A stretch of DNA of 36,444 nt from Chrysochromulina tobinii (Eukaryota), in NCBI GenBank assembly GCA_001275005.1, contig JWZX01003333.1, positions 1 through 36,444 of the forward strand. Direction: 5' to 3'. Position numbers and translations under genes: made by a program. Positions 1,869-36,444 of the stretch are shown here, piece after piece (positions within the stretch are counted from its first letter, which is position 1; each line of letters opens with the position of its first letter). The notes below the pieces were generated by a model, which made no database searches, had not been told where the DNA came from, and saw nothing but the letters and a program-made list of their open reading frames with translations.

Positions 1869-4800
1869 CTATCCCCTTCCCTCCTCGGGCGGATCGCCGC
1901 GAGTGAGTGCTCCCGTTCCAAGCGCTACCGCCCGACGCAGCGCCTCCCACATCTCCGGTGTGATGTGGGCGCGTCTGACGCTCAGGCTCGCCGCCTCCGC
2001 GTCTGCAACCACCGCTGCCGGAATGCGCCAGCCGGCGCCGTCAGCCAGTGCGGTGGGGTGGCTCAGTCTGTCCGCGTCCACGTTCAGCTCGCGCGGCACC
2101 GCCACTCCCAGCCACAGCGTCGTCAGTTGACCCGCCTCGCGCAAGATGCTGCGCATCTGCGCCGTGGGGCTCGTCGCTGCGTTGAGGGCGGCCGCTGCCG
2201 GCGCGCAGTCACCGATGGCCGTGATCGCCGTCGCCCTGCGTCCTCTCTCGCTCGCTACTGCGTCGGCTACGGCGATGATGCCGAATAGCTCTGCTGCCGG
2301 CATCGAGAGTGACCCCCCTCCTGTTGGCACTGTCCCCGTCTCGGCCGCTCTGTCGAGCGCGGCCTGGATGTCCGCCGGCCACTTCTCAGAGACCAGCCAG
2401 ACTTCCCCGGGGCTGTTTGCGTCGAAGAGATATCCCCCGACCCCGTCGATGCCACTGGCGTCCGTGGTCACCGTATCCATTCCGAGCTCATCAAGTGCAG
2501 GGAATGACAGCTCGGGTGCGAGCGCCACCCCGACGTTGAGCTCGAGTAGCTCGGCTGCCACAGCCAGTAGCCCCAGCCAGTCGGTCTGCGCACTGCTACC
2601 TGTGCGTAGACGCATGCGGCGGAGGCGACGTCGCCGCCCGCCCGCTTGCCACGACGCCTTGGTGATGGCGTACCCTCCGTGTAGCACGGACTTGAGCTCT
2701 GGGAGAATCTGGGAGATGTTGACCAGCCGCCCTACCAGCGTCTCGGCGCGATCTCGGTCCACCTCGAGCGCCTCACGAGCTGCCTCTGCCTGCTTGGCCA
2801 GATCTGCCAGCATGGATGCCCGCTTGAGCGGCGGGCAGTCGATCCGCCTGGCCGCCCGGTCGATGCGCAGACCGAGCCCGATGACGGGGTCGCCCGCTAC
2901 CACCTTGTGGGGCGCCGCGTCGAGGCCTACGTCCCTGAGCCCCGCGACGGTGAGCTGCGCGTGTACGTACACGCGTGTGCTCGGGCTCGCCGCGGTTCCT
3001 CCCTCGGACCGGACCTGCTCCGGGCCGATGCTGATCCCTCGTACCTCGTCCGGCTCTGTCACCGGGTCGTCGAGTGCTGTGCCCATGAAATCATCAATGT
3101 ACACTTGCAGGTGACTGGGCATCGCCTGCACGTGTGCATTGGGTAGCTCCCCGCGAGCCTGGGCGGCGCGACGCTCGCTCATCCAGCGGCGAGCCGCCGG
3201 TGGCGGTGGCTGTGCCTCGTCGAACGCCGCCTGTTTCGTCCTAATGTGGGCCACGACCATGGTCGAGATGCGCTCGAACCTGTTGGGGGCGAAGGAGCCT
3301 CCGAACGCCGTCCGTCGGTCGACACAGATGCCTGCGCTGCCCTCTGCGTCCCACCACAAGAAGCACTGTTGCCACAGGTCCGCCTCTTGCGTGGGGCAGT
3401 ATCTATAGGCGGATTGGGCGTCTACCACGTACGAGCCCACTCGCGTTGCGTCGTCGCCAGCCGTGTCGCATATAGCTATCCCCCTCCCAAATTGCTGCAC
3501 CGTCGGCAGCTCCACCCAGCACTCGTGGTCGGGAACGCCGGCGTTCACCGACCGATCCCCGCCGTTGCTGCTGTCCTGGGTGACGCGCGGCTTCGGGTAG
3601 AGCTCGAGTGTAGGTTCTCCGCCACTCTCGCTCGGCACCAGCCTCGACCGTTCCTGCATGACGACGTTCCTCGGTAGGAGGCGGCACGGGACAAAAGGCA
3701 GGTGGCGGATCGGCTGATCTACCCACTGCTCCGCGATATCCGTCGCGACCGCCCGCTCGGCTGCGTCCACGTTCTCGATGAGCCCCAGGTGGTGGAATGC
3801 CAACACCGTGTCGAGCGGACAGTCTGAGCGTGACTCTATCCCGCCCTCGCCGACCTGGCTCACGATGTCACGATCGTGCCAGTCTAGCGCGGCTGCCACC
3901 GCCCGAAATGCGGCGCGGTCGATTTGCTTCCCCCCCTTGAACGTCGTGTGCCTCGTCGAGGGCGTCACCAGCTTGCAGTCAAGGGGGTCGGAGCAGTTCC
4001 AGACCACTCCCTGTGCCCACGTCCGCATCTGCTCTTGCCCGATGGTTCGAGTGGGGACCGCCGGTGGTGTGCGGCCCTCTTTTAGAGCTTTGGCCGCCCT
4101 GTCTGCGAGCTGTAGCCACGGCGTCACGATCCCGTCGTACACACCATCGAGGTACAGCTCCCCGATTGCGATGCTGCCCGCCCGTATGCGCTCTGCGCGT
4201 TCCACCGCGTGCTCTTCAGCTCCTGGCTGCGGCGGGCGCATGTGCGGCCTTGGCTTCCCCTTCGGCTTGCTTGGCGCTTGCGCTGGCCAGTGCATGCCCA
4301 CGGGGAACGCCTCGTGCCGGAGGCTCTCCAGCGATGCCGGCCTGCGGTTGCGCATAGACGCAAAGCGCGGTGGGCGGTGCCTGGCTTCCTCGCACGCTCG
4401 TGCGACCCCTGGACCCAGCCGCGGTCCGTCTGCCACGCGGCCGCCCCCGAGTGCCGCCGCTGCTCCCCTGCTGAGCTGGTGCTGCCCCTCCTCTTCCCTG
4501 CGCTCGCGTGCTCTCGCCGTCAGCGCGGATGCCAAGAAGGCGTTCATCGCGAGCGGGTAGGCGGCTGATGCCGCTGAGAGCGAGGATCCGTCGGCTGCCC
4601 GGCCGTGAGCCCGTCCGTCGTGCGCTGTCGCGCCGTGGTCGCACGGACGTTGGCGCAGCGGTGCCAGCAGCCCCTCGAGGTCCGATGAGTACGCGACCGT
4701 CGTCCATTTCTGCGTGGTGGCCCCAAATGCACACTGCGCAAACGTGGCTTCGCGCGCCCCTGCTGCTCCAGCGATCGCGGTCGCCACCGCCGGCTGTAGC

Positions 4801-6350
4801 CACAGCGGTGCGTGATCCGCGTGTTTCTCCCAAAAGGCCGGCGATCGTCGGTCGCCCCGATCCGCAGGATTCTCGATCACCCACGAGGCGCCCGCCGCAT
4901 GCGCTGCCGCCACCAGATCCGCCGTGAACTGTGCAAGTTCATTGTGCTTCCCCAAGTACCTCGCCCACTCGCTCGGCGTGTTCTGCAGACCAAGGGGCTG
5001 CCGCCGCGAGCGCAGCTGCGGCCGGTGAGCTATCGAGTAGCTCTGGCAAGGCGTGGCGATGAACACAGACGTGAAATCGCCGCGCCGCACCGCGTCAAGC
5101 AGGTGGCGGCGTGGCTGTGGCCTGAGCACGTTGTGTTGTTCACCGCCCTGCTTCGTGTCGATCGCCACCACGTGGAGCCCTCGAGCTCTCAGGTGTGCAG
5201 CGAGGTCCCGTTCGCTCCCCGGTCCGGCGAACACGATGAGCACCTTTGCCCATCCCGTGTCAGTCGTGTCGACTTGATCCGTGCTCGCCTCGCTCGTCGC
5301 GCTGTCATCGCTTGCCTCGCTCTGGTCGCTATCCCGTTGGCTGTCCTCTGCGTCTCCAACCCGGTCCATCATCCCCGCCGCCGCCGCCATCATCCCCGCC
5401 GCCGCCGCCCCGGCTCCAGCGGTCACGGACTCGCCCCCAGCTAAGGAGAAGAATCTTGAACCGGTGCTGAGAGCGGGCGGCTGCGACGGTGATGAGGGCG
5501 GCAAGGCAACAGCGAGCTGACTGGCCACGTCGTCCGCTTGCGCGCACCTGGTGGAGATCCAGCTGGCAATCGCGTCACCGTGGCAGCGGCTGGGGCTGCA
5601 CCCGCAGCGTAGCCACAGCGTCTCCCCCTTGCGCGCCCGCTCGGCCAGCCAGCTGAGCGCCAGCAGTCGGCTCTGTGGCGGCGTCCGAGTGCTCTTGGCG
5701 TGTGGCGGGGGCAGTCCTCTGGTGCGTGCGATCTGCTCTGGCGTCGACGCGCCTCGTAGCAGTTCCCCATATCCGTCGACCACCGCGTCCCGTTGGGCTT
5801 CACCGTGCATGAGCAGCGGGTTGCCGAACACTCCCATTTGATCTCCAGATCGCCGAATGTCGATCTCCCCAGTCACAAAAGCGTCGCCTGGTCCCAGTAC
5901 GACCACGCGACCGGCGGATGTGAGTGCCGTCTCGCTTGTATTCGCCGCGGCCGGCGGCGCGGCTATCGTTTCGTGCCTCGCCTCGGCGCGTATGCTTGTG
6001 CCCGCGCCGACGTGTGGCGGTTTGACCACTGAGATGGTGGCCTCGACCAACACGGCTGCAAAGGCGACGCGCGGAGGTTGCCTCCTGCGACGATCCAACC
6101 CCCCAAGTGCTTGCCCAGCTGGCTCGACCCTGCGCTTGTCCCCGGCTTCCGCTGTTGATGTGTTAGCTCGTTGCCCAGCGGCCTCTTCTGCTGGCTCAGC
6201 CCTGTTACCGCTCGACCCCGTTGAGGTCGACGGCTCGCCTTCGCCCGCAGCGTGTCGCCGCTCCCTGTCCAGGTACGCGTCGAGTCGTGCCTCGAAGCCA
6301 CCCTCCTGACCCAGCCCCGGCAGCGGATCGCTGCCTGGGCTGGCAATTTC
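1869..6350 (-). CDS. Pol polyprotein: DUF4326-like, C5 DNA methyltransferase, reverse transcriptase, RNase H
   Basis: The frame stays open from 6350, 84 codons upstream of the TTG at 6098. DUF4326-like DIRRS..FGNP...LRCGCSPSRCHGDAI (~5550-5880). MTase VLIVFAGPG, TPCQSYS, IENP, QCAFG, AAYP (~4530-5250). RT VVDAQSAYR, FGGSFAPNRF, VYIDD (~3090-3430). RNase H TTDASG, AAELFG, IGDC, NVDADRLSH (~2060-2470). Confidence 0.92.
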   Translation of the reverse strand, partial: EIASPGSDPLPGLGQEGGFEARLDAYLDRERRHAAGEGEPSTSTGSSGNRAEPAEEAAGQRANTSTAEAGDKRRVEPAGQALGGLDRRRRQPPRVAFAAVLVEATISVVKPPHVGAGTSIRAEARHETIAAPPAAANTSETALTSAGRVVVLGPGDAFVTGEIDIRRSGDQMGVFGNPLLMHGEAQRDAVVDGYGELLRGASTPEQIARTRGLPPPHAKSTRTPPQSRLLALSWLAERARKGETLWLRCGCSPSRCHGDAIASWISTRCAQADDVASQLAVALPPSSPSQPPALSTGSRFFSLAGGESVTAGAGAAAAGMMAAAAGMMDRVGDAEDSQRDSDQSEASDDSATSEASTDQVDTTDTGWAKVLIVFAGPGSERDLAAHLRARGLHVVAIDTKQGGEQHNVLRPQPRRHLLDAVRRGDFTSVFIATPCQSYSIAHRPQLRSRRQPLGLQNTPSEWARYLGKHNELAQFTADLVAAAHAAGASWVIENPADRGDRRSPAFWEKHADHAPLWLQPAVATAIAGAAGAREATFAQCAFGATTQKWTTVAYSSDLEGLLAPLRQRPCDHGATAHDGRAHGRAADGSSLSAASAAYPLAMNAFLASALTARARERREEEGQHQLSRGAAAALGGGRVADGPRLGPGVARACEEARHRPPRFASMRNRRPASLESLRHEAFPVGMHWPAQAPSKPKGKPRPHMRPPQPGAEEHAVERAERIRAGSIAIGELYLDGVYDGIVTPWLQLADRAAKALKEGRTPPAVPTRTIGQEQMRTWAQGVVWNCSDPLDCKLVTPSTRHTTFKGGKQIDRAAFRAVAAALDWHDRDIVSQVGEGGIESRSDCPLDTVLAFHHLGLIENVDAAERAVATDIAEQWVDQPIRHLPFVPCRLLPRNVVMQERSRLVPSESGGEPTLELYPKPRVTQDSSNGGDRSVNAGVPDHECWVELPTVQQFGRGIAICDTAGDDATRVGSYVVDAQSAYRYCPTQEADLWQQCFLWWDAEGSAGICVDRRTAFGGSFAPNRFERISTMVVAHIRTKQAAFDEAQPPPPAARRWMSERRAAQARGELPNAHVQAMPSHLQVYIDDFMGTALDDPVTEPDEVRGISIGPEQVRSEGGTAASPSTRVYVHAQLTVAGLRDVGLDAAPHKVVAGDPVIGLGLRIDRAARRIDCPPLKRASMLADLAKQAEAAREALEVDRDRAETLVGRLVNISQILPELKSVLHGGYAITKASWQAGGRRRRLRRMRLRTGSSAQTDWLGLLAVAAELLELNVGVALAPELSFPALDELGMDTVTTDASGIDGVGGYLFDANSPGEVWLVSEKWPADIQAALDRAAETGTVPTGGGSLSMPAAELFGIIAVADAVASERGRRATAITAIGDCAPAAAALNAATSPTAQMRSILREAGQLTTLWLGVAVPRELNVDADRLSHPTALADGAGWRIPAAVVADAEAASLSVRRAHITPEMWEALRRAVALGTGALTRGDPPEEGRG

Positions 6351-6353
6351 TCA
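6311..6353 (-). promoter_or_regulatory. Putative UGA readthrough signal: stop codon, 7 nt spacer, 14 bp stem-loop
   Basis: Minus strand reads TGA GAAATTG CCAGCCC-A-GGCAGCG-ATC-CGCTGCC-G-GGGCTGG, and gag and pol are in the same frame. Confidence 0.65.
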
Positions 6354-9300
6354 GATCTTGGCCTGTAGCGAGGCGACGCACGCTGCCCTTACCTTGTCCA
6401 GTGTGCCAGGCGGTACCGCCGGTGCTCCCCCGGCCTTTTTGGCCATGTCCGCCTGTGTCGTGCACGAGCGGCATGGTGGCGAGCCGATCGCTCCGCCCTT
6501 GCAGCCGCACGCGAATGCCGCGAATGCGCACGGCAGTTGGGCGTTCGAGAGGGTCGGGTGTGCTAGCCGGAGGAGATAGTCGAAGTGCTCGACCGCTCCC
6601 AGCCTCTTCGTCTTCTTGTCGATCAGCATCGTGATGCTGTTCGCCGCGAACGAAGGGACCCACGCGCGTCCGGCCGCTGCCGCCGCTGCTGCCGCCGCCG
6701 CTGATGTCGCGGCAGCTGCCGCCGCCGCCGCCGCCGTCCCGGCCGTCGTCGTCGACGTTGCCGCCGGTGTCCCCCCTGCCTTGGCCGCCTCGAGCTTGGC
6801 TGCGTATTCAAGCCGTCGCCGTTCCCCACGTGGTACCTTGGCGTCGCCCTCGGCGGTGATCACCGGCGCCTTGTGCTTGTTTCCCGCGGCCAGCGCCTCT
6901 GCTGCTGCTTGCTTGCCCGCGCGGGCCCCCGCCTCCTCCGAGTGCTCTTCACGACCGAGTGCCTCGAGCTTCTCGCGCATGTCGACCTCGATGAGCGATG
7001 CCCATCCAGTTTCGAGCACATTCGCGCGCGAGCGCTGGTGGCGTGCGCCGCGGTCCGCTCGCTGGAACAAGTCCTCAAAGAGCTCAGTCGCCTTGACGAC
7101 GGTGAGCTCTCCGAGTGCGTCTCGGGCGAGGTCGTGCATCCCGTAGTCCTCACGGGTGCCCCCGTCCTCACCGAGGGCCTTGACGCGGATCGCGAGGAGG
7201 ATCGTCCCGAGATGCATCATCGCAGTCTCGATGTCCGACGTCGCCTTCGGGCCGGTGGTTGTCCCCCAGTGGCCCGCTCCCGACTTCGAGCTCTTTGTGG
7301 CCCTGTTGTTGCTGGGTTTGGTGGACCCGAGCAGCTTGACAATCAGGGCGAAGTCGACAGACTTGCTCCCCCCCTCGACCTTCACCGCACCCGCGAGGGA
7401 TGATGTGAGGATGGCGAGAGAGAGTGCCTCGATCTCCCCCGTGCATTCCCCCGCCCGCTCCTCGGTGACGAGGCGTTCGATGAACGCCTCGATGAACGCG
7501 AGGAGCCCCTGTTGTGCCAGTAGAACCGGCGCTGCGATGGAACCTGCGAGGTCACAAGTGTGTTACCGCGTCAGCTTCCCCGACGACTGTGCGCGGCGGA
7601 TCGCTCGCGACAGTGTCGCCCCCGTTCGTCCCCGTCGCCCCGTGCGTCCCCTGTTGCTCCCGTTTCCCGATGGGCACGAGCCGGGTTTGGGTCGCTCTGG
7701 TCCAATCACTCCACGCGCCGTGCTGGGCGGTACGCTGCGACTGTCCCTTCGCTCCCCGCCCTCGTCTGCGCCCTGTTGGTTTGCTCCCCCGCGCTGTGTC
7801 TTGTGTGTGTGGGTGTGCGTGTTCGAGTGTGCGGCGCGCACCGTTGCCCGCGAGCGCGTCCTTGTACGAGCCGTCGGATGACATGAGCGCTCTCGCGGCG
7901 TCGCCGTACGAGGTGCCGACGATCCTTCGCGCCTCGTCGATCGGGTCGGCGCTGTGCTCCGCTGCTGCTTCTGCTTCCACGACCCCGGGCTCAGTCAGCT
8001 GCGTAATGATGGATGCCGCGCAAGAGAGCGCCGCCGTCGCCATCGAAGTACGCCGCACGAGCTTGACGCGAGCCGGATCGGCTTCGCTGCCCGCGTCCTT
8101 GAACGCGATCTTGTCCGGCTTGCCCGGCGAGATCTTTGTGTTCTGGTACGCCGTGATGATCTGGCGGAGCCTGTTGCCTGCTTCACGCCAGTCAGGTGGT
8201 GGTAGCTCAAAGTTGACGCCCGCTCCTTTGAGGATGATCGCGTAGTCTTCCCCGGCCGAGGTCGCCATCTCCTCGGCGGTGTCCCCTGCGAAGAGTGCGC
8301 CGGCTGGAGGCCTGCCCACCGCTGCCGCCATCGTGTCTGCCAGCAGCTGCAGCGTGGCGCCCCGTGCTTGTGCAATTTTCTCCCATGCTGCCCCCGGTGT
8401 CACCGTGCCGGTGTTCGCCGGCCTTAAAAAGGGCAGCGTCTCCGTCCACGCGGTCGTCGGTGGCCGTGGGGGCGGTGCTGTGCCCCTTGGTGCCGTTGGC
8501 GCCCCTCCCCCCAGTGCTGCCGCGGCGGCCGCCGCCGCCGCCGCTGTGGTTGCCGCCGCGATTGTTGCCGTGGTGGCCGCGGCCGCCGCGAGTGCCGCCG
8601 TGGCTGCCGCCGCTGTCGCGGACTTGGCCTCGGCCGATCCGATCGACTTCGCGAGCGCCTCGCCTACGCCAGACGGACCCAGCGTAACCCCCAGCAAGGA
8701 TGAAAGGCTCGCCGACATCTTGGCTGTGTCCCCGATGGTGGCTGAGTCAAGTGAGTCCACCAAGTCGCCGATGGCCGACTTGAGTGCCTCGGCCGCCCGG
8801 TAGAGCTGTGATTTTGGTTCGTCGTGTGTGCCCCCCGGGTCGCCCGCTCCGAGGTGTGCAAACACCACTGCGAGGGGCCGTTCGATAGCAGGATCCCCAG
8901 TGAGCCCAGCCACAAACCCCGCATAGTCGGTGACACCGGTATGCACCCCACGCGTTCCGATGTCGGAACCGATCGTCGTCAGAGCCGCGATGCGCATGAG
9001 CGCGTTCGGTCCGGTTGCCAGGTTGCCCAGTAGGATCTTTGCCGCGATTGCGACGGCTTCGGTCGGTACGCCGGCTGCCGCTTATGATCGGGCGGCGTGA
9101 TGTTCGTCCCAGCCCAGTGTTCCCAGATGTTTGGTCCCATGATTGCCTCGAGGTCGTTAAGCTTTCGCATGACCACGGTGCCTCCAATCTTCAATTGGAC
9201 TGCCTCGAGAGGGCCGGTGCTGAGCACGGGCTCGATGGTGACGCCCCAGCCCCATTCCTGTGGCCAGCGTCGCCGCCCGCGCTCCGCGTTTGAGCCCCGA

Positions 9301-9624
9301 GGTGATGCAGCCCACCATCGCTCTTATCGCTCCAGCTGTATTCATCGCTTCTTCTGTGAGCTCTTCCGTCGCCGAACTGTTGTCGGCCTTCGAGACGGTG
9401 ATCTTCAGGTTCTTCTGATCCCCGGTCTTGATGTTGGTGGGGATGTACCGCCAAGAATCGGTCCCGCCAAATCTCATCCAGACGATCGACCCCTTGAGGA
9501 GGTCTCTGGTTTCTCCCATTTTGGTGCTGTCAAATAATGCTGGCTTCGCGGGCGTGTCGCCCGCTGCCGGGTCCAGCACGAGGCCTGCCGCCTCGCGTGC
9601 CGTCCGACCCACTTCCTTGAGCAT
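6351..9624 (-). CDS. Gag-like ORF1 of the retroelement; exons ~9624-7842 and 7543-6351, with two compensating frame discontinuities near 9245 and 9083
   Basis: Position upstream of pol, Ala-rich linkers and a C-terminal Cys cluster (LPCAFAAFACGCKGGAIGSPPCRSC). ORFs 9157..9624, 8979..9227, 7552..8997 and 6351..7385 join into one protein. The Gag identity is positional only. Confidence 0.65.
7544..7841 (-). other. Spliceosomal intron (298 nt, phase 1) inside the gag-like ORF
   Basis: Donor AACG|GTGCGC at 7841, branch GCTGAC at 7575-7570, acceptor CTCGCAG|GT at 7544. Removal gives ...KDALAGN-G-SIAAPVLLAQQGLLAFIE..., in frame with ORF 6351..7385. Confidence 0.75.
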
Positions 9625-10032
9625 AGCCTTCCCGAAAAAAGAAGGAGAGGCTGCGCCCGCGCTGCCTGTCGCACGCTGTCAAGTGGCGACGAGCCCTTGA
9701 TCTTCGTGAGGGATGGGGATTTCGTTTCCACGTTCCAGACGTTCACAGCACCTGTGAGGGGGCCGGCTGTGATTGTGGTTTTTGCTTATCCCCTGGCTTA
9801 TACCCCGTATAGCTGTGACCTAGATCTGCTGGACCCAGTGTCGTGACCACGCCGTCGGCTCGACGCTCCCGGGGACACTTCACCCCCTCGGGCACAGCCC
9901 AAGGACCCACCCTGCGGCAAAAGATCGTCGAGGTGTCCGACTTTTTCATGTACATGTATAGTAACGTCCGAACATCGGGTCGCGTCGGACTCCGAGGATT
10001 TCCGGACGCCAGCTCTCCTGCGCGCCGACGAG

Positions 10033-10881
10033 ATGCCAGTCATCCTGCCCGTGCCCACCGCCGAGGGCGTCGACGAGCCGTCCATCGCCGATAGCAGTGC
10101 GCTCCACAAAGAGAGTCCGCGATATTGCGAACTCGTGCGGCAGGCGCTGGCGATGCGCGCGGGCGTTGGCTTCGGCGACGTTGAGCGGCTTGACGCCTTC
10201 CGGCTAACGGGGCCGGACAACCACGGGCGCCCCGTGTTCATGTTCCTTCCGGCTGCGATCCCCGAGACGGAAGAGACAGAGGCCATCGTCGAGAAGCTCA
10301 CGCTCTACGTGCTCTCGCTGGTACATGATCTGGTAGTCAACCAGCAGCAGGGCTACACGGCCATCTGGATGTGCAACAACCACTCAGAGTCGCGGCCGCT
10401 CTCCGCCCGCTGGTTCTACAAGATGCATCGATGCGTGCCGTACTGCTACCACGAGCGCCTCGCCGGCCTCTGCCTGGTGCACCCGTCGGTCACCGTGCGC
10501 TGCCTGATCTTTCTGCTCTCGTACCTGCCGCGCGTCTCGTTTTGGGAAAAGCTCAACTACTGCGACCGTCTCGAGTTCCTGGACGCGGACGTGCCGGTCG
10601 CGCTCATCAAGACCGTGCCACAGCTCTACAAGGACTACGACAAGCAGCTCGACCGCGAGATGTACGAGAGCTCGGACCGGCTCGGCGCGGGCGGCGCCCT
10701 CGGCGGAAGCAGTATGGCGGGCATGGCAGGCATGGGCGGACTGCCCGGCGGGCTGGGCATGGGTGTCGGCGGCATGGGCATGGGTGGCGTGCCTGGCGTC
10801 TACGGCGGCGCGAGCGCCGAGGGCGAGCAGTCGGTGCGGCCTAAGGTGGACCTGCCCAAGCGCAATTGGGAGACGGACTGA
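10033..10881 (+). CDS. CRAL-TRIO/BCH (Sec14-like) domain protein with a Gly/Met-rich tail
   Basis: GPDNHGRPVFMFL, YHERLAGLCLVHPS and SFWEKLNYCDRLEFL resemble the BCH/CRAL_TRIO_2 consensus; clean 282 aa ORF. Confidence 0.85.
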   Translation: MPVILPVPTAEGVDEPSIADSSALHKESPRYCELVRQALAMRAGVGFGDVERLDAFRLTGPDNHGRPVFMFLPAAIPETEETEAIVEKLTLYVLSLVHDLVVNQQQGYTAIWMCNNHSESRPLSARWFYKMHRCVPYCYHERLAGLCLVHPSVTVRCLIFLLSYLPRVSFWEKLNYCDRLEFLDADVPVALIKTVPQLYKDYDKQLDREMYESSDRLGAGGALGGSSMAGMAGMGGLPGGLGMGVGGMGMGGVPGVYGGASAEGEQSVRPKVDLPKRNWETD

Positions 10882-34963: not shown

Positions 34964-35968
34964 TCATGACCCGGCCCGGCTCGCGAGCGTGAGCGCGGTC
35001 TGACCGTGCAGTGGCCAGCGCAGCTGCGTCACCTGGCCGCGCGCGCCCGGCACTGCCGCGGCCACACCCGATGCGACGCCGGAAGCGACGCCGGAGAGCA
35101 TGCGCTGCGAGAGCCACATAGGGCCACTCTTGTACTTGCGATGCGCGGCGCCGCCCCACATCGCGTGCTCGTGCATGCGCTCGGTGCGGACTTGGATCTC
35201 AAACAGCTGCCCGTTCGGGAGCCGCAGGGTGTCATGGAGCCCCTGGTAGCCGTTGGGTTTGGGTCTCCGCACGTAGTCTTTGAAGCGCCCCTCGCCCACC
35301 GAAGGGTAAAGATGGCGGATGGCCGCGAGGGCTTCGTAGACGTCGGCGGCGTCCTCACCGCGCACGACCACGCGCACGGCCAGCACGTCGTGAACCGTCT
35401 TCTGACGCACCGTCGCCTTGTGGAACGTGCTCCACAAACCCTTTGAGCGCACGGCCACAGCGGCGTGCCGGAGCACGGGATGCTCGTTGCCCATGGCGCG
35501 GATCTGCTGCTTGGTGGACTCGAGGCACGCCTTCATGGCCTCCTGCGCGCCGAAGGCCTGCATCCGCCACTCACGCAGCAGCCAGTACGCCTCGGGCGAG
35601 ACGAGCGCCAGCATGATGTCGTCCGCAGGGATGTTTTGGAGCTGGAGCATCGAGTGCTTGAGCCTCAAGGCAACGGCGGACGACTTCAAACGCCTGGACG
35701 TCTCGTGGAGCAGCAGCGAAGGGAAGGTTGCCTGCACAGCGAGAGCACGTGGGGGCGTGCGCGTCTCAGCCAAAGTGGGGCGCTTGGATTGTTGCTGAAA
35801 CGTGGAGGGGGGCGGCGGCGCAAAGGGGTGGGGCCTTGGGCGCACCGAGAAAGAGGGCAACGTTTCCAATTGCAGTGCGGCGGTTGCCGTCGGTGCCAGT
35901 GCAACGCGCGAAAGTGCATTTGGCAACACGAACACGACCGCGGTTGCGATGAAGAGTGGGACGATCAT
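34964..35968 (-). CDS. RelA/SpoT homologue, (p)ppGpp synthetase domain, probably plastid-targeted
   Basis: RSKGLWSTFHK, VHDVLAVRVVV, KDYVRRPKPNGYQGLH and FEIQVRTERMHEHAMWGGAAHRKYK; hydrophobic N-terminus from Met at 35968. Confidence 0.92.
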   Translation of the reverse strand: MIVPLFIATAVVFVLPNALSRVALAPTATAALQLETLPSFSVRPRPHPFAPPPPSTFQQQSKRPTLAETRTPPRALAVQATFPSLLLHETSRRLKSSAVALRLKHSMLQLQNIPADDIMLALVSPEAYWLLREWRMQAFGAQEAMKACLESTKQQIRAMGNEHPVLRHAAVAVRSKGLWSTFHKATVRQKTVHDVLAVRVVVRGEDAADVYEALAAIRHLYPSVGEGRFKDYVRRPKPNGYQGLHDTLRLPNGQLFEIQVRTERMHEHAMWGGAAHRKYKSGPMWLSQRMLSGVASGVASGVAAAVPGARGQVTQLRWPLHGQTALTLASRAGS

Positions 35969-36042
35969 CTGGACGGCCTCGAGTTTGGGGTCGGACGGAT
36001 GCAAGAATCCGGAAGGATACATGATACATGATGCATGATTCA

Positions 36043-36444
36043 TCAAGTCGATACGGAGGGACCCATGTTCTTTCCGACAAGAGCGTGGGTCATTCCGACA
36101 TGTTCATGAACTTGTCGGACATGTTCGATGATCAATACAAAGTCAGAATCACGTATTTGTGGTTGAATGGCCGTCATCTCATCCGCGTCCCAACATACTG
36201 CATCCTGCTCTAATGGCACTTCATCTGCATCCCAAGCCGCAACCCTTTGAAACCCTATGCTGCGAATCTCGGCCGGCATTGGCGCCACATGTCGAGGAGA
36301 GCGCGCAGGTGCGGAGGAACGCGCATGTTGCGGCGATCTCAACAAGGGTTGGGGGTGGCAGGTGCGCCAGAATGAGCTCGAGCAGGCCGAGCTCCTTGTC
36401 GCGCAGGTCGGTCAACATGGCGACACTGACAGCCACAACCTCGT
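36043..36444 (-). CDS. Partial F-box-like protein (5' end off the window; frame change between two ORFs)
   Basis: DLRDKELGLLELILAHLPPPTLVEIAATCAFLR is F-box-like; continuation into ORF 36043..36345 is uncertain. Confidence 0.4.

Follow-up and report, generated by a model that had tools for sequence, protein, structure and literature searches.

We analysed a 36,444-nucleotide stretch of Chrysochromulina DNA, hereafter the window, and propose with moderate confidence that a transcribed recombinase retrotransposon located in it carries, inside Pol, a domain of predicted C5-cytosine methyltransferase fold, likely derived from a virus, which likely methylates the element's own new DNA prior to integration (Table 1). 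The domain lies within a single Pol frame, ahead of the reverse transcriptase (RT) and RNase H. A first-pass annotation of this DNA had claimed methyltransferase motifs I, IV and VI, followed by QCAFG and AAYP, in frame upstream of RT, and all of them are present in that order on the minus strand, within the open frame 1869-6350.

Table 1. Features of the retrotransposon in the window (amino acid numbers refer to Pol; L001 positions lie outside the window)
Feature	Positions	Strand	Details
5' repeat A1	9634-9907	minus	274 bp; its partner A2 at the 3' end (L001 15478-15751) is 100% identical
gag-like ORF1, 5' piece	9157-9678	minus	named by position only; no Pfam match
gag-like exon	7842-9081	minus	not in the same frame as the 5' piece in the window copy
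GT..AG intron	7544-7841	minus	298 nt; absent from polyA RNA contigs
last gag-like exon	6351-7543	minus	Cys/His-rich end; TGA followed directly by Pol, in frame
Pol open frame	1869-6350	minus	1,493 codons, stop to stop
DUF4326 (PF14216)	5565-5864	minus	25.8 bits against a cut-off of 25
C5-cytosine methyltransferase-fold domain, compact	4521-5255	minus	~245 aa; by predicted structure and profile comparison
motif I, F-A-G codons	5223-5231	minus	
motif IV, Pro-Cys	5046-5051	minus	Pol 434-435
motif VI, Glu-Asn-Pro	4866-4874	minus	Pol 493-495
Cys of QCAFG	4731-4733	minus	
predicted zinc site C540, C570, H/C572, H577	4620-4733	minus	all four in 156/163 relatives; His/Cys exchange at 572
K-x-T at the place expected for motif VIII R-x-R	4701-4709	minus	K in 163/163, T in 158/163 relatives
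Y-P of AAYP	4554-4559	minus	
reverse transcriptase	2751-3713	minus	invariant Asp 977, Asp 1086-1087
RNase H	2016-2483	minus	invariant D1297, E1354, D1381, D1427
tyrosine recombinase ORF	221-1814	minus	530 codons in L001
start of repeat B1	1-88	minus	B1 of 311 bp; B1-A2-167 bp spacer-B2 runs beyond the window (L001 15167-16229)

The identity of the domain is argued from its fold and its conservation. An AlphaFold model built from 49 sequences reached a pLDDT of 95.4, and all the matches listed for it were C5 methyltransferases, both in Foldseek against the PDB (46/46) and in a narrow VIA structure search (50/50, with M.HhaI at the top). M.HhaI aligned with the model at Z 11.6 and rmsd 3.8 over 202 residues, covering chain positions 10-320 and including the C-terminal motif X helix; DNMT3A was about level with it (Z 11.1). 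The best viral match in Foldseek was a putative cytosine methyltransferase of Tetraselmis virus 1 (TM 0.56/0.63). In the ESM Atlas, the top clusters, at 0.96, bore no name, and the named entries at 0.88-0.89, which serve as leads only, were viral or bacterial cytosine methyltransferases. Overall, the model predicts that the domain folds as a C5-cytosine methyltransferase, and the identity given to it by the annotation is supported by structural similarity.

The annotation had also named an HMM search against PF00145 as a check, and this check failed: a Pfam search gave no match to this profile for the window protein, for any of 32 relatives or for any of the 43 members of our alignment. The claim therefore rests on structure and conservation. 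When PDB sequences were searched, first with the domain alone and also with profiles of its family, chance matches and DNMT2 (E 0.66-0.9) were all that came back. The ordered pattern F[AS]G..PC..EN[PV] occurred once in the six frames of the window and never in 100 triplet shuffles, a loose control, since the pattern was written from the finding itself.

Conservation was assessed on 163 non-redundant full-length domains drawn from 214; as these relatives were gathered by similarity to the domain, its conservation is inflated in the counts given here. Pol-sized proteins yielded 57 relatives, and the whole domain family comprises 1,040 clusters at 50% identity, 150 of which were listed. The PC and ENP motifs, on whose conservation among copies the annotation had staked its claim, are kept in this set of non-redundant relatives: motif IV retains Pro in 161/163 and the catalytic Cys in 162/163, and motif VI retains Glu in 163/163 and Asn in 150/163, the third residue being P and not V. 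Taken jointly, P, C, E and K are present in 160 of the 163 relatives, at identities down to about 30-35%. Across motifs I-III, F is found in 145 of the same 163 domains, G in 149, the second G in 56, D/E398 in 161 and D/N407 in 160.

Motif VIII is where the family departs from the canon. At the expected place of R-x-R it carries K-x-T, which we equate with motif VIII by motif spacing and strand position and not by residue-level superposition, and neither R-x-R nor QxRxR was found at motif VIII in any of the 163 relatives. Other arginines are conserved, namely R447 in 156 and R498 in 143 of the 163. The R165A exchange is reported to slow M.HhaI by a factor of 10^5, and Dnmt3a is described as dependent on both of its motif VIII arginines (PMC4802922). 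Because R-x-R is absent from all 163 relatives and these arginines are essential in M.HhaI and Dnmt3a, activity seems less certain than the other motifs suggest; the missing arginines are the main result against it. Further, the co-occurrence of C540, C570, H/C572 and H577, together with the His/Cys exchange at 572, suggests a zinc site.

Over 49 proteins, the domain is conserved to about the same degree as RT, with median identities to the window of 54% and 58%, against 48% in the linker. Domain and RT distances co-vary (rho 0.78, with 0/500 permutations as high, in 55 of 61 rows), and fast trees of the two have only 17/52 splits in common; here too, the choice of relatives by their likeness to the domain introduces a bias.

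The element that houses the domain could be followed past the window edge on two metagenome contigs representing the same locus (99.97% identity). Its layout is A1, the ORFs, B1, A2, a spacer and B2, and each repeat pair is 100% identical; identical split direct repeats are taken as a sign of recent insertion in a work on such elements (PMC6681497). The element ends carry direct repeats only, no inverted terminal repeats being found, and the sequence at the repeat junction showed no overlap with the insertion flanks. The RT is too diverged for Pfam: the window proteins gave no match to RVT_1, nor to Phage_integrase. However diverged, the part of Pol downstream of the domain is modelled as RT and RNase H with a pLDDT of 93.4 and has HERV-K, MMLV and Ty3 RT as its best matches (E down to 4e-13), and the RT/RNase H acidic residues are invariant in 66 sequences. 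The last ORF appears to encode a weakly recognisable tyrosine recombinase, for which all eight PDB matches were Cre, the best with a weak E of 0.014, and whose residues R, K, R, W and Y are kept without exception across 34 sequences. With A-coding-B-A-B repeats, an RT/RNase H model and a Cre-like recombinase, the element can be regarded, as had been claimed, as a recombinase (YR) retrotransposon with the domain in Pol ahead of RT.

Pol ends ~50 residues after RNase H, and hence there is no room for a DIRS1-type adenine methyltransferase. DUF4326 was found in one other family only among the 307 proteins searched, so that it is not a fixed part of these elements; it adjoins the methyltransferase in three distant elements (that of the window, P0260 and P0252), either before or after the domain. 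The first Met of Pol lies ~170 codons in, and the gag TGA (6351-6353) is directly followed by Pol in frame. Read-through of this stop codon is possible.

The haptophyte-like host proposed by the annotation is indeed a haptophyte, given that a gene model of Chrysochromulina parva is 98% identical over the domain. PolyA RNA contigs (two runs, one study) span most of the element without the 298-nt intron, which is kept in DNA run X1, and this difference shows transcription from the minus strand. Removal of the intron joins two gag exons into one frame of 810 codons. RNA contigs of runs X13 and X14 stop ~115 nt into A2, and none of the contigs of this one study runs over the spacer or B2; we do not take these stops as evidence for transcript ends.

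As for the state of this copy, one extra base at window position 1355 splits the recombinase ORF and is absent from L001 and from all three covering runs, and at position 9244 the window has one base more than L001 and all four runs compared. Both extra bases are probable assembly errors. At the gag junction (window 9081), the RNA strain carries an additional base and, by frame arithmetic only, its gag would be continuous; the copy of the window strain may be impaired, its gag 5' part appearing out of frame. Of the differences listed in Pol, 13/18 are silent. Contig depth inside the element is about that of the flank and about double at the repeats, a pattern that suggests one copy, bearing in mind that depth is not a copy number. 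No depletion of CpG was seen (observed/expected 1.10 in the element vs 1.11 in the flank), nor any element-specific depletion of CpG, CHG or 4-mers, and C/T differences showed no CpG excess (13/29 in CpG vs 37% expected, p 0.24, with 40 of 65 differences compared). Since the active SymbioDIRS-Dnmt3 likewise lacks CpG depletion, its absence here is weak counter-evidence.

The closest profile to the domain family is a viral one. PHROG profile phrog_757 matches 19/43 alignment members, and comparison of the family profile with a phrog_757-like viral family gave an HH probability of 99.3% and E 3.5e-20 over 201 columns. The alignment runs end to end and takes in C-x-x-G..K-x-T, C..H and the terminal P. 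The viral set behind it consists of 105 loci (L003-L107) from a motif scan whose pattern fixed K-x-T in advance but not C67, E106-N107, C154, C158, H170 or P194. All 12 viral loci tested match phrog_757 best, and 11 of them pass PF00145. The family profile scores 101/105 viral loci (median 20 bits vs a shuffled-copy maximum of 12), the viral profile finds M.HhaI at E 3e-7, and the family profile retrieved no DNMT3 chain from the PDB at E up to 10. A tblastn search of phage genomes gave no match, and word-based scans of viral contigs and prokaryote genomes gave no relative, at a low sensitivity by which absence is not implied.

Two trees, one of 98 rows and one of 50, set the retroelement domains on a separate side from the viral ones (100/100), with viral rows as the only outgroup, with no DNMT3, SymbioDIRS or SymbioLINE rows and with sets that differ in letter make-up. 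For these reasons, we consider a virus the likely donor of the domain and do not put it more firmly. The first-pass suggestion of a further lineage or acquisition gains support as a separate acquisition, the nearest profile being that of the viral family and not DNMT3.

The domain is not confined to elements like that of the window. Among 205 proteins examined, 96 have a window-like RT and most others are fragments; for most rows, the recombinase label reflects RT similarity and not sight of a recombinase gene. Pfam identifies ten distinct proteins as Copia; in these, the domain precedes RT and, in those that have an integrase, follows the integrase. P0241, a diverged Copia protein whose domain comes behind RNase H, brings the Copia total to 11. 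P0250 is a Gypsy-like polyprotein with the domain at its start, and in P0252 and P0270 the domain interrupts the RT region of a recombinase-fused Pol; these four proteins (P0241 included) are single records that could be misassembled. By eye, P0250 also shows another methyltransferase-like segment (DLYCG..NPPY), which lies between its RNase H and its integrase, and a chromodomain-like end. Across the architectures, the domain thus occupies five positions, and in every classifiable one it is fused to RT. For the main Copia layout there are several records, in clusters that count 18 and 25 members. On the tree, eight Copia proteins and the Gypsy-like one form a single clade (100/100), P0241 and P0243 branch outside it, and no fewer than two changes are required for the Copia label. 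Two relatives carry a bacterial MAG label, which is probably contamination.

How might such a domain serve its element? Translation that reads through the gag TGA, or that begins internally, would yield Pol, and the domain would stay tethered to RT/RNase H. On the double-stranded copy, Glu493 would hold a flipped cytosine while Cys435 attacks its C6, and the methyl group would come from SAM at motifs I-III; Lys548, together with the family-conserved Arg447 or Arg498, might replace the missing motif VIII arginines. A small zinc-stabilised segment would stand in place of a target-recognition domain, which would imply a short or loose target. The recombinase would then integrate a copy already bearing host-like 5mC. 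Broad, nucleosome-linked 5mC associated with DNMT5 is described in haptophytes such as Emiliania (PMC9998398, PMC12344493), and we infer that a pre-methylated element copy would look like host DNA against this background. The fusion of the domain to RT in every classifiable architecture fits action in cis. A reported activity for the viral phrog_757-like family was not found in the literature.

The constant fusion to RT also bears on whether the element's own DNA copy is the substrate. It is possible, if somewhat unlikely, that an active C5 methyltransferase of this kind has another main target, be it element RNA or an RNA-DNA hybrid, host chromatin at the target site or invading viral DNA. 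Such a reading agrees with the conserved catalytic Cys and Glu, with an element free of CpG depletion and with the missing canonical target-recognition domain (245 aa vs 327 in M.HhaI), and an antiviral role of retrotransposon methylases has been put forward as a hypothesis (PMC6338049). However, the domain is always joined to RT in Pol and not expressed alone, and its closest kin are genes of DNA viruses. We think it rather improbable that no methyl group is transferred at all, the domain being a SAM- or nucleic-acid-binding module or its Cys serving a different reaction, for instance cytosine deamination or covalent trapping. The near-invariance of Cys and Glu would be hard to explain without catalysis, and the free-standing viral genes keep C and E-N, residues absent from the pattern that fetched them; on the other hand, both motif VIII arginines are absent, the second Gly of motif I is kept in little more than a third of the relatives, and the adenine-type domains of DIRS1 have been argued to be inactive (PMC4738411).

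The remaining alternative concerns origin, and we give it very little credence: the domain would be a much-diverged DNMT3 or an orphan SymbioLINE-type DNMT, that is, a member of an already described lineage. The A-coding-B-A-B layout with a DNMT in Pol is that of SymbioDIRS-Dnmt3, DNMT3A ties with M.HhaI in structural comparison, and our trees were built from sets other than DNMT3, SymbioDIRS or SymbioLINE sequences. Yet the PDB search turned up no DNMT3 chain, and it is the viral family that aligns end to end; DNMT3 enzymes have ENV and QxRxR according to PMC4802922, whereas the window family has ENP, K-x-T and a likely zinc site. Moreover, the Symbiodinium retrotransposon domains are reported to have been found via PF00145 (PMC5890265), which misses the domain of the window. 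We thus retain, at the strength given above, the reading of a likely virus-derived domain that likely methylates the new DNA of its own element.

DNMT-bearing recombinase retrotransposons as such are already known, from Symbiodinium. Retrotransposons with C5 methyltransferases have been described as SymbioDIRS-Dnmt3, SymbioLINE-Dnmt and KnitGypsy-Dnmt3, and isolated SymbioDIRS-Dnmt3 domains are reported to methylate CG in yeast (PMC5890265). The same 2018 survey by de Mendoza et al. credits Chrysochromulina tobin with four DNMT genes and Emiliania with 12; its main text makes no mention of haptophytes and has Symbiodinium Copia elements without DNMT (PMC5890265). A later paper places DNMT3 in Copia and DIRS (PMC12344493) on the authority of the 2018 paper, where the text speaks of Gypsy. 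Like SymbioDIRS-Dnmt3 as described, the element of the window is a recombinase retrotransposon with A-coding-B-A-B repeats, an enzyme in Pol with RT, a separate recombinase ORF and no CpG depletion. The enzyme of SymbioDIRS-Dnmt3, however, is of the DNMT3 clade, detectable by Pfam and from Symbiodinium, whereas ours is viral-type, invisible to PF00145 and from a haptophyte. By analogy, the element would work like SymbioDIRS-Dnmt3 without being a member, and its C5-fold domain fails the canonical motif VIII test.

Other known elements differ further. DIRS1-like elements share gag, RT/RNase H, a recombinase and a methyltransferase-like domain in Pol (PMC3266345, PMC4738411), but their ends are described as inverted repeats and their methyltransferase-like domain as N6-adenine-type and placed behind RNase H, and the element of the window shows neither trait. 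Membership of the DIRS1-like superfamily, which is also marked by an internal complementary region, was rejected on account of the direct repeats and of where Pol ends. Ngaro-, PAT- and VIPER-like elements have the same A1-ORFs-B1-A2-B2 split direct repeats, identical at insertion (PMC6681497); according to published descriptions, Ngaro and VIPER are devoid of a methyltransferase, whereas this element has a domain of predicted C5 fold. The compact viral methyltransferases resemble the domain in size (~200-250 aa) and in LFxG, PC, ENP, C-x-(Y/F)G..K-x-T, a downstream Cys/His and the terminal P, but they are free-standing viral genes, and the retroelement domains lie on their own side of the tree, which would place the donor outside the sampled set.

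EpiLTRs are LTR retrotransposons of Cymbomonas and Euglena with a non-DNMT3 cytosine methyltransferase, DAM and a chromodomain (bioRxiv 10.64898/2026.05.21.726589); the element of the window is a recombinase element and gave no such Pfam matches. Two loci filed as viruses, L033 (1-1461) and L055 (1-1560), have a long frame ending in a chromodomain and a viral-family cytosine methyltransferase. The chromodomain is above the cut-off in L033 and weak in L055, and both resemble an EpiLTR tail. L033 shows the 3' layout described for EpiLTRs (SH3, chromodomain, DNMT) with an enzyme of the same viral family, and from this layout we infer that it is an EpiLTR; in the tree, its enzyme nests among viral enzymes, apart from the family of the window.

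In our literature searches, we did not find a haptophyte host, the viral-type enzyme or its spread, and the review by Iyer et al. 2011 on rare DNMT-RT fusions may mention haptophyte cases. Published surveys of retrotransposon methyltransferases relied on PF00145 and were blind to this family, so such elements may be far commoner than thought, as its 1,040 clusters would suggest. Should it be active, a 245-residue C5 methyltransferase devoid of arginines held essential would bear on mechanism and could serve as a compact tool. It is tempting to go further, and we do so only tentatively: this may be an unrecognised, Pfam-invisible class of small zinc-containing enzymes with a lysine for two "universal" arginines, captured once from algal viruses by recombinase retrotransposons and then passed repeatedly into Copia and Gypsy at five places of Pol, which would make self-methylating retrotransposons common in the genomes of haptophytes and other plankton and a hidden source of 5mC. 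The element of the window is young and transcribed, apparently exists in one copy and lives in a freshwater alga that can be cultured, and it makes self-methylation of retrotransposon cDNA directly testable there.

Finally, we would like to comment on the surroundings of the element. A host CRAL-TRIO gene (9847-10881, plus strand) starts beside its 5' end. Tandem repeats of 10-11 nt, of the type CTGATTGCCT, abound in the host introns between 15300 and 33600, and an ORF at 34964-36103 may encode a RelA/SpoT-type synthetase, which it resembles by eye.
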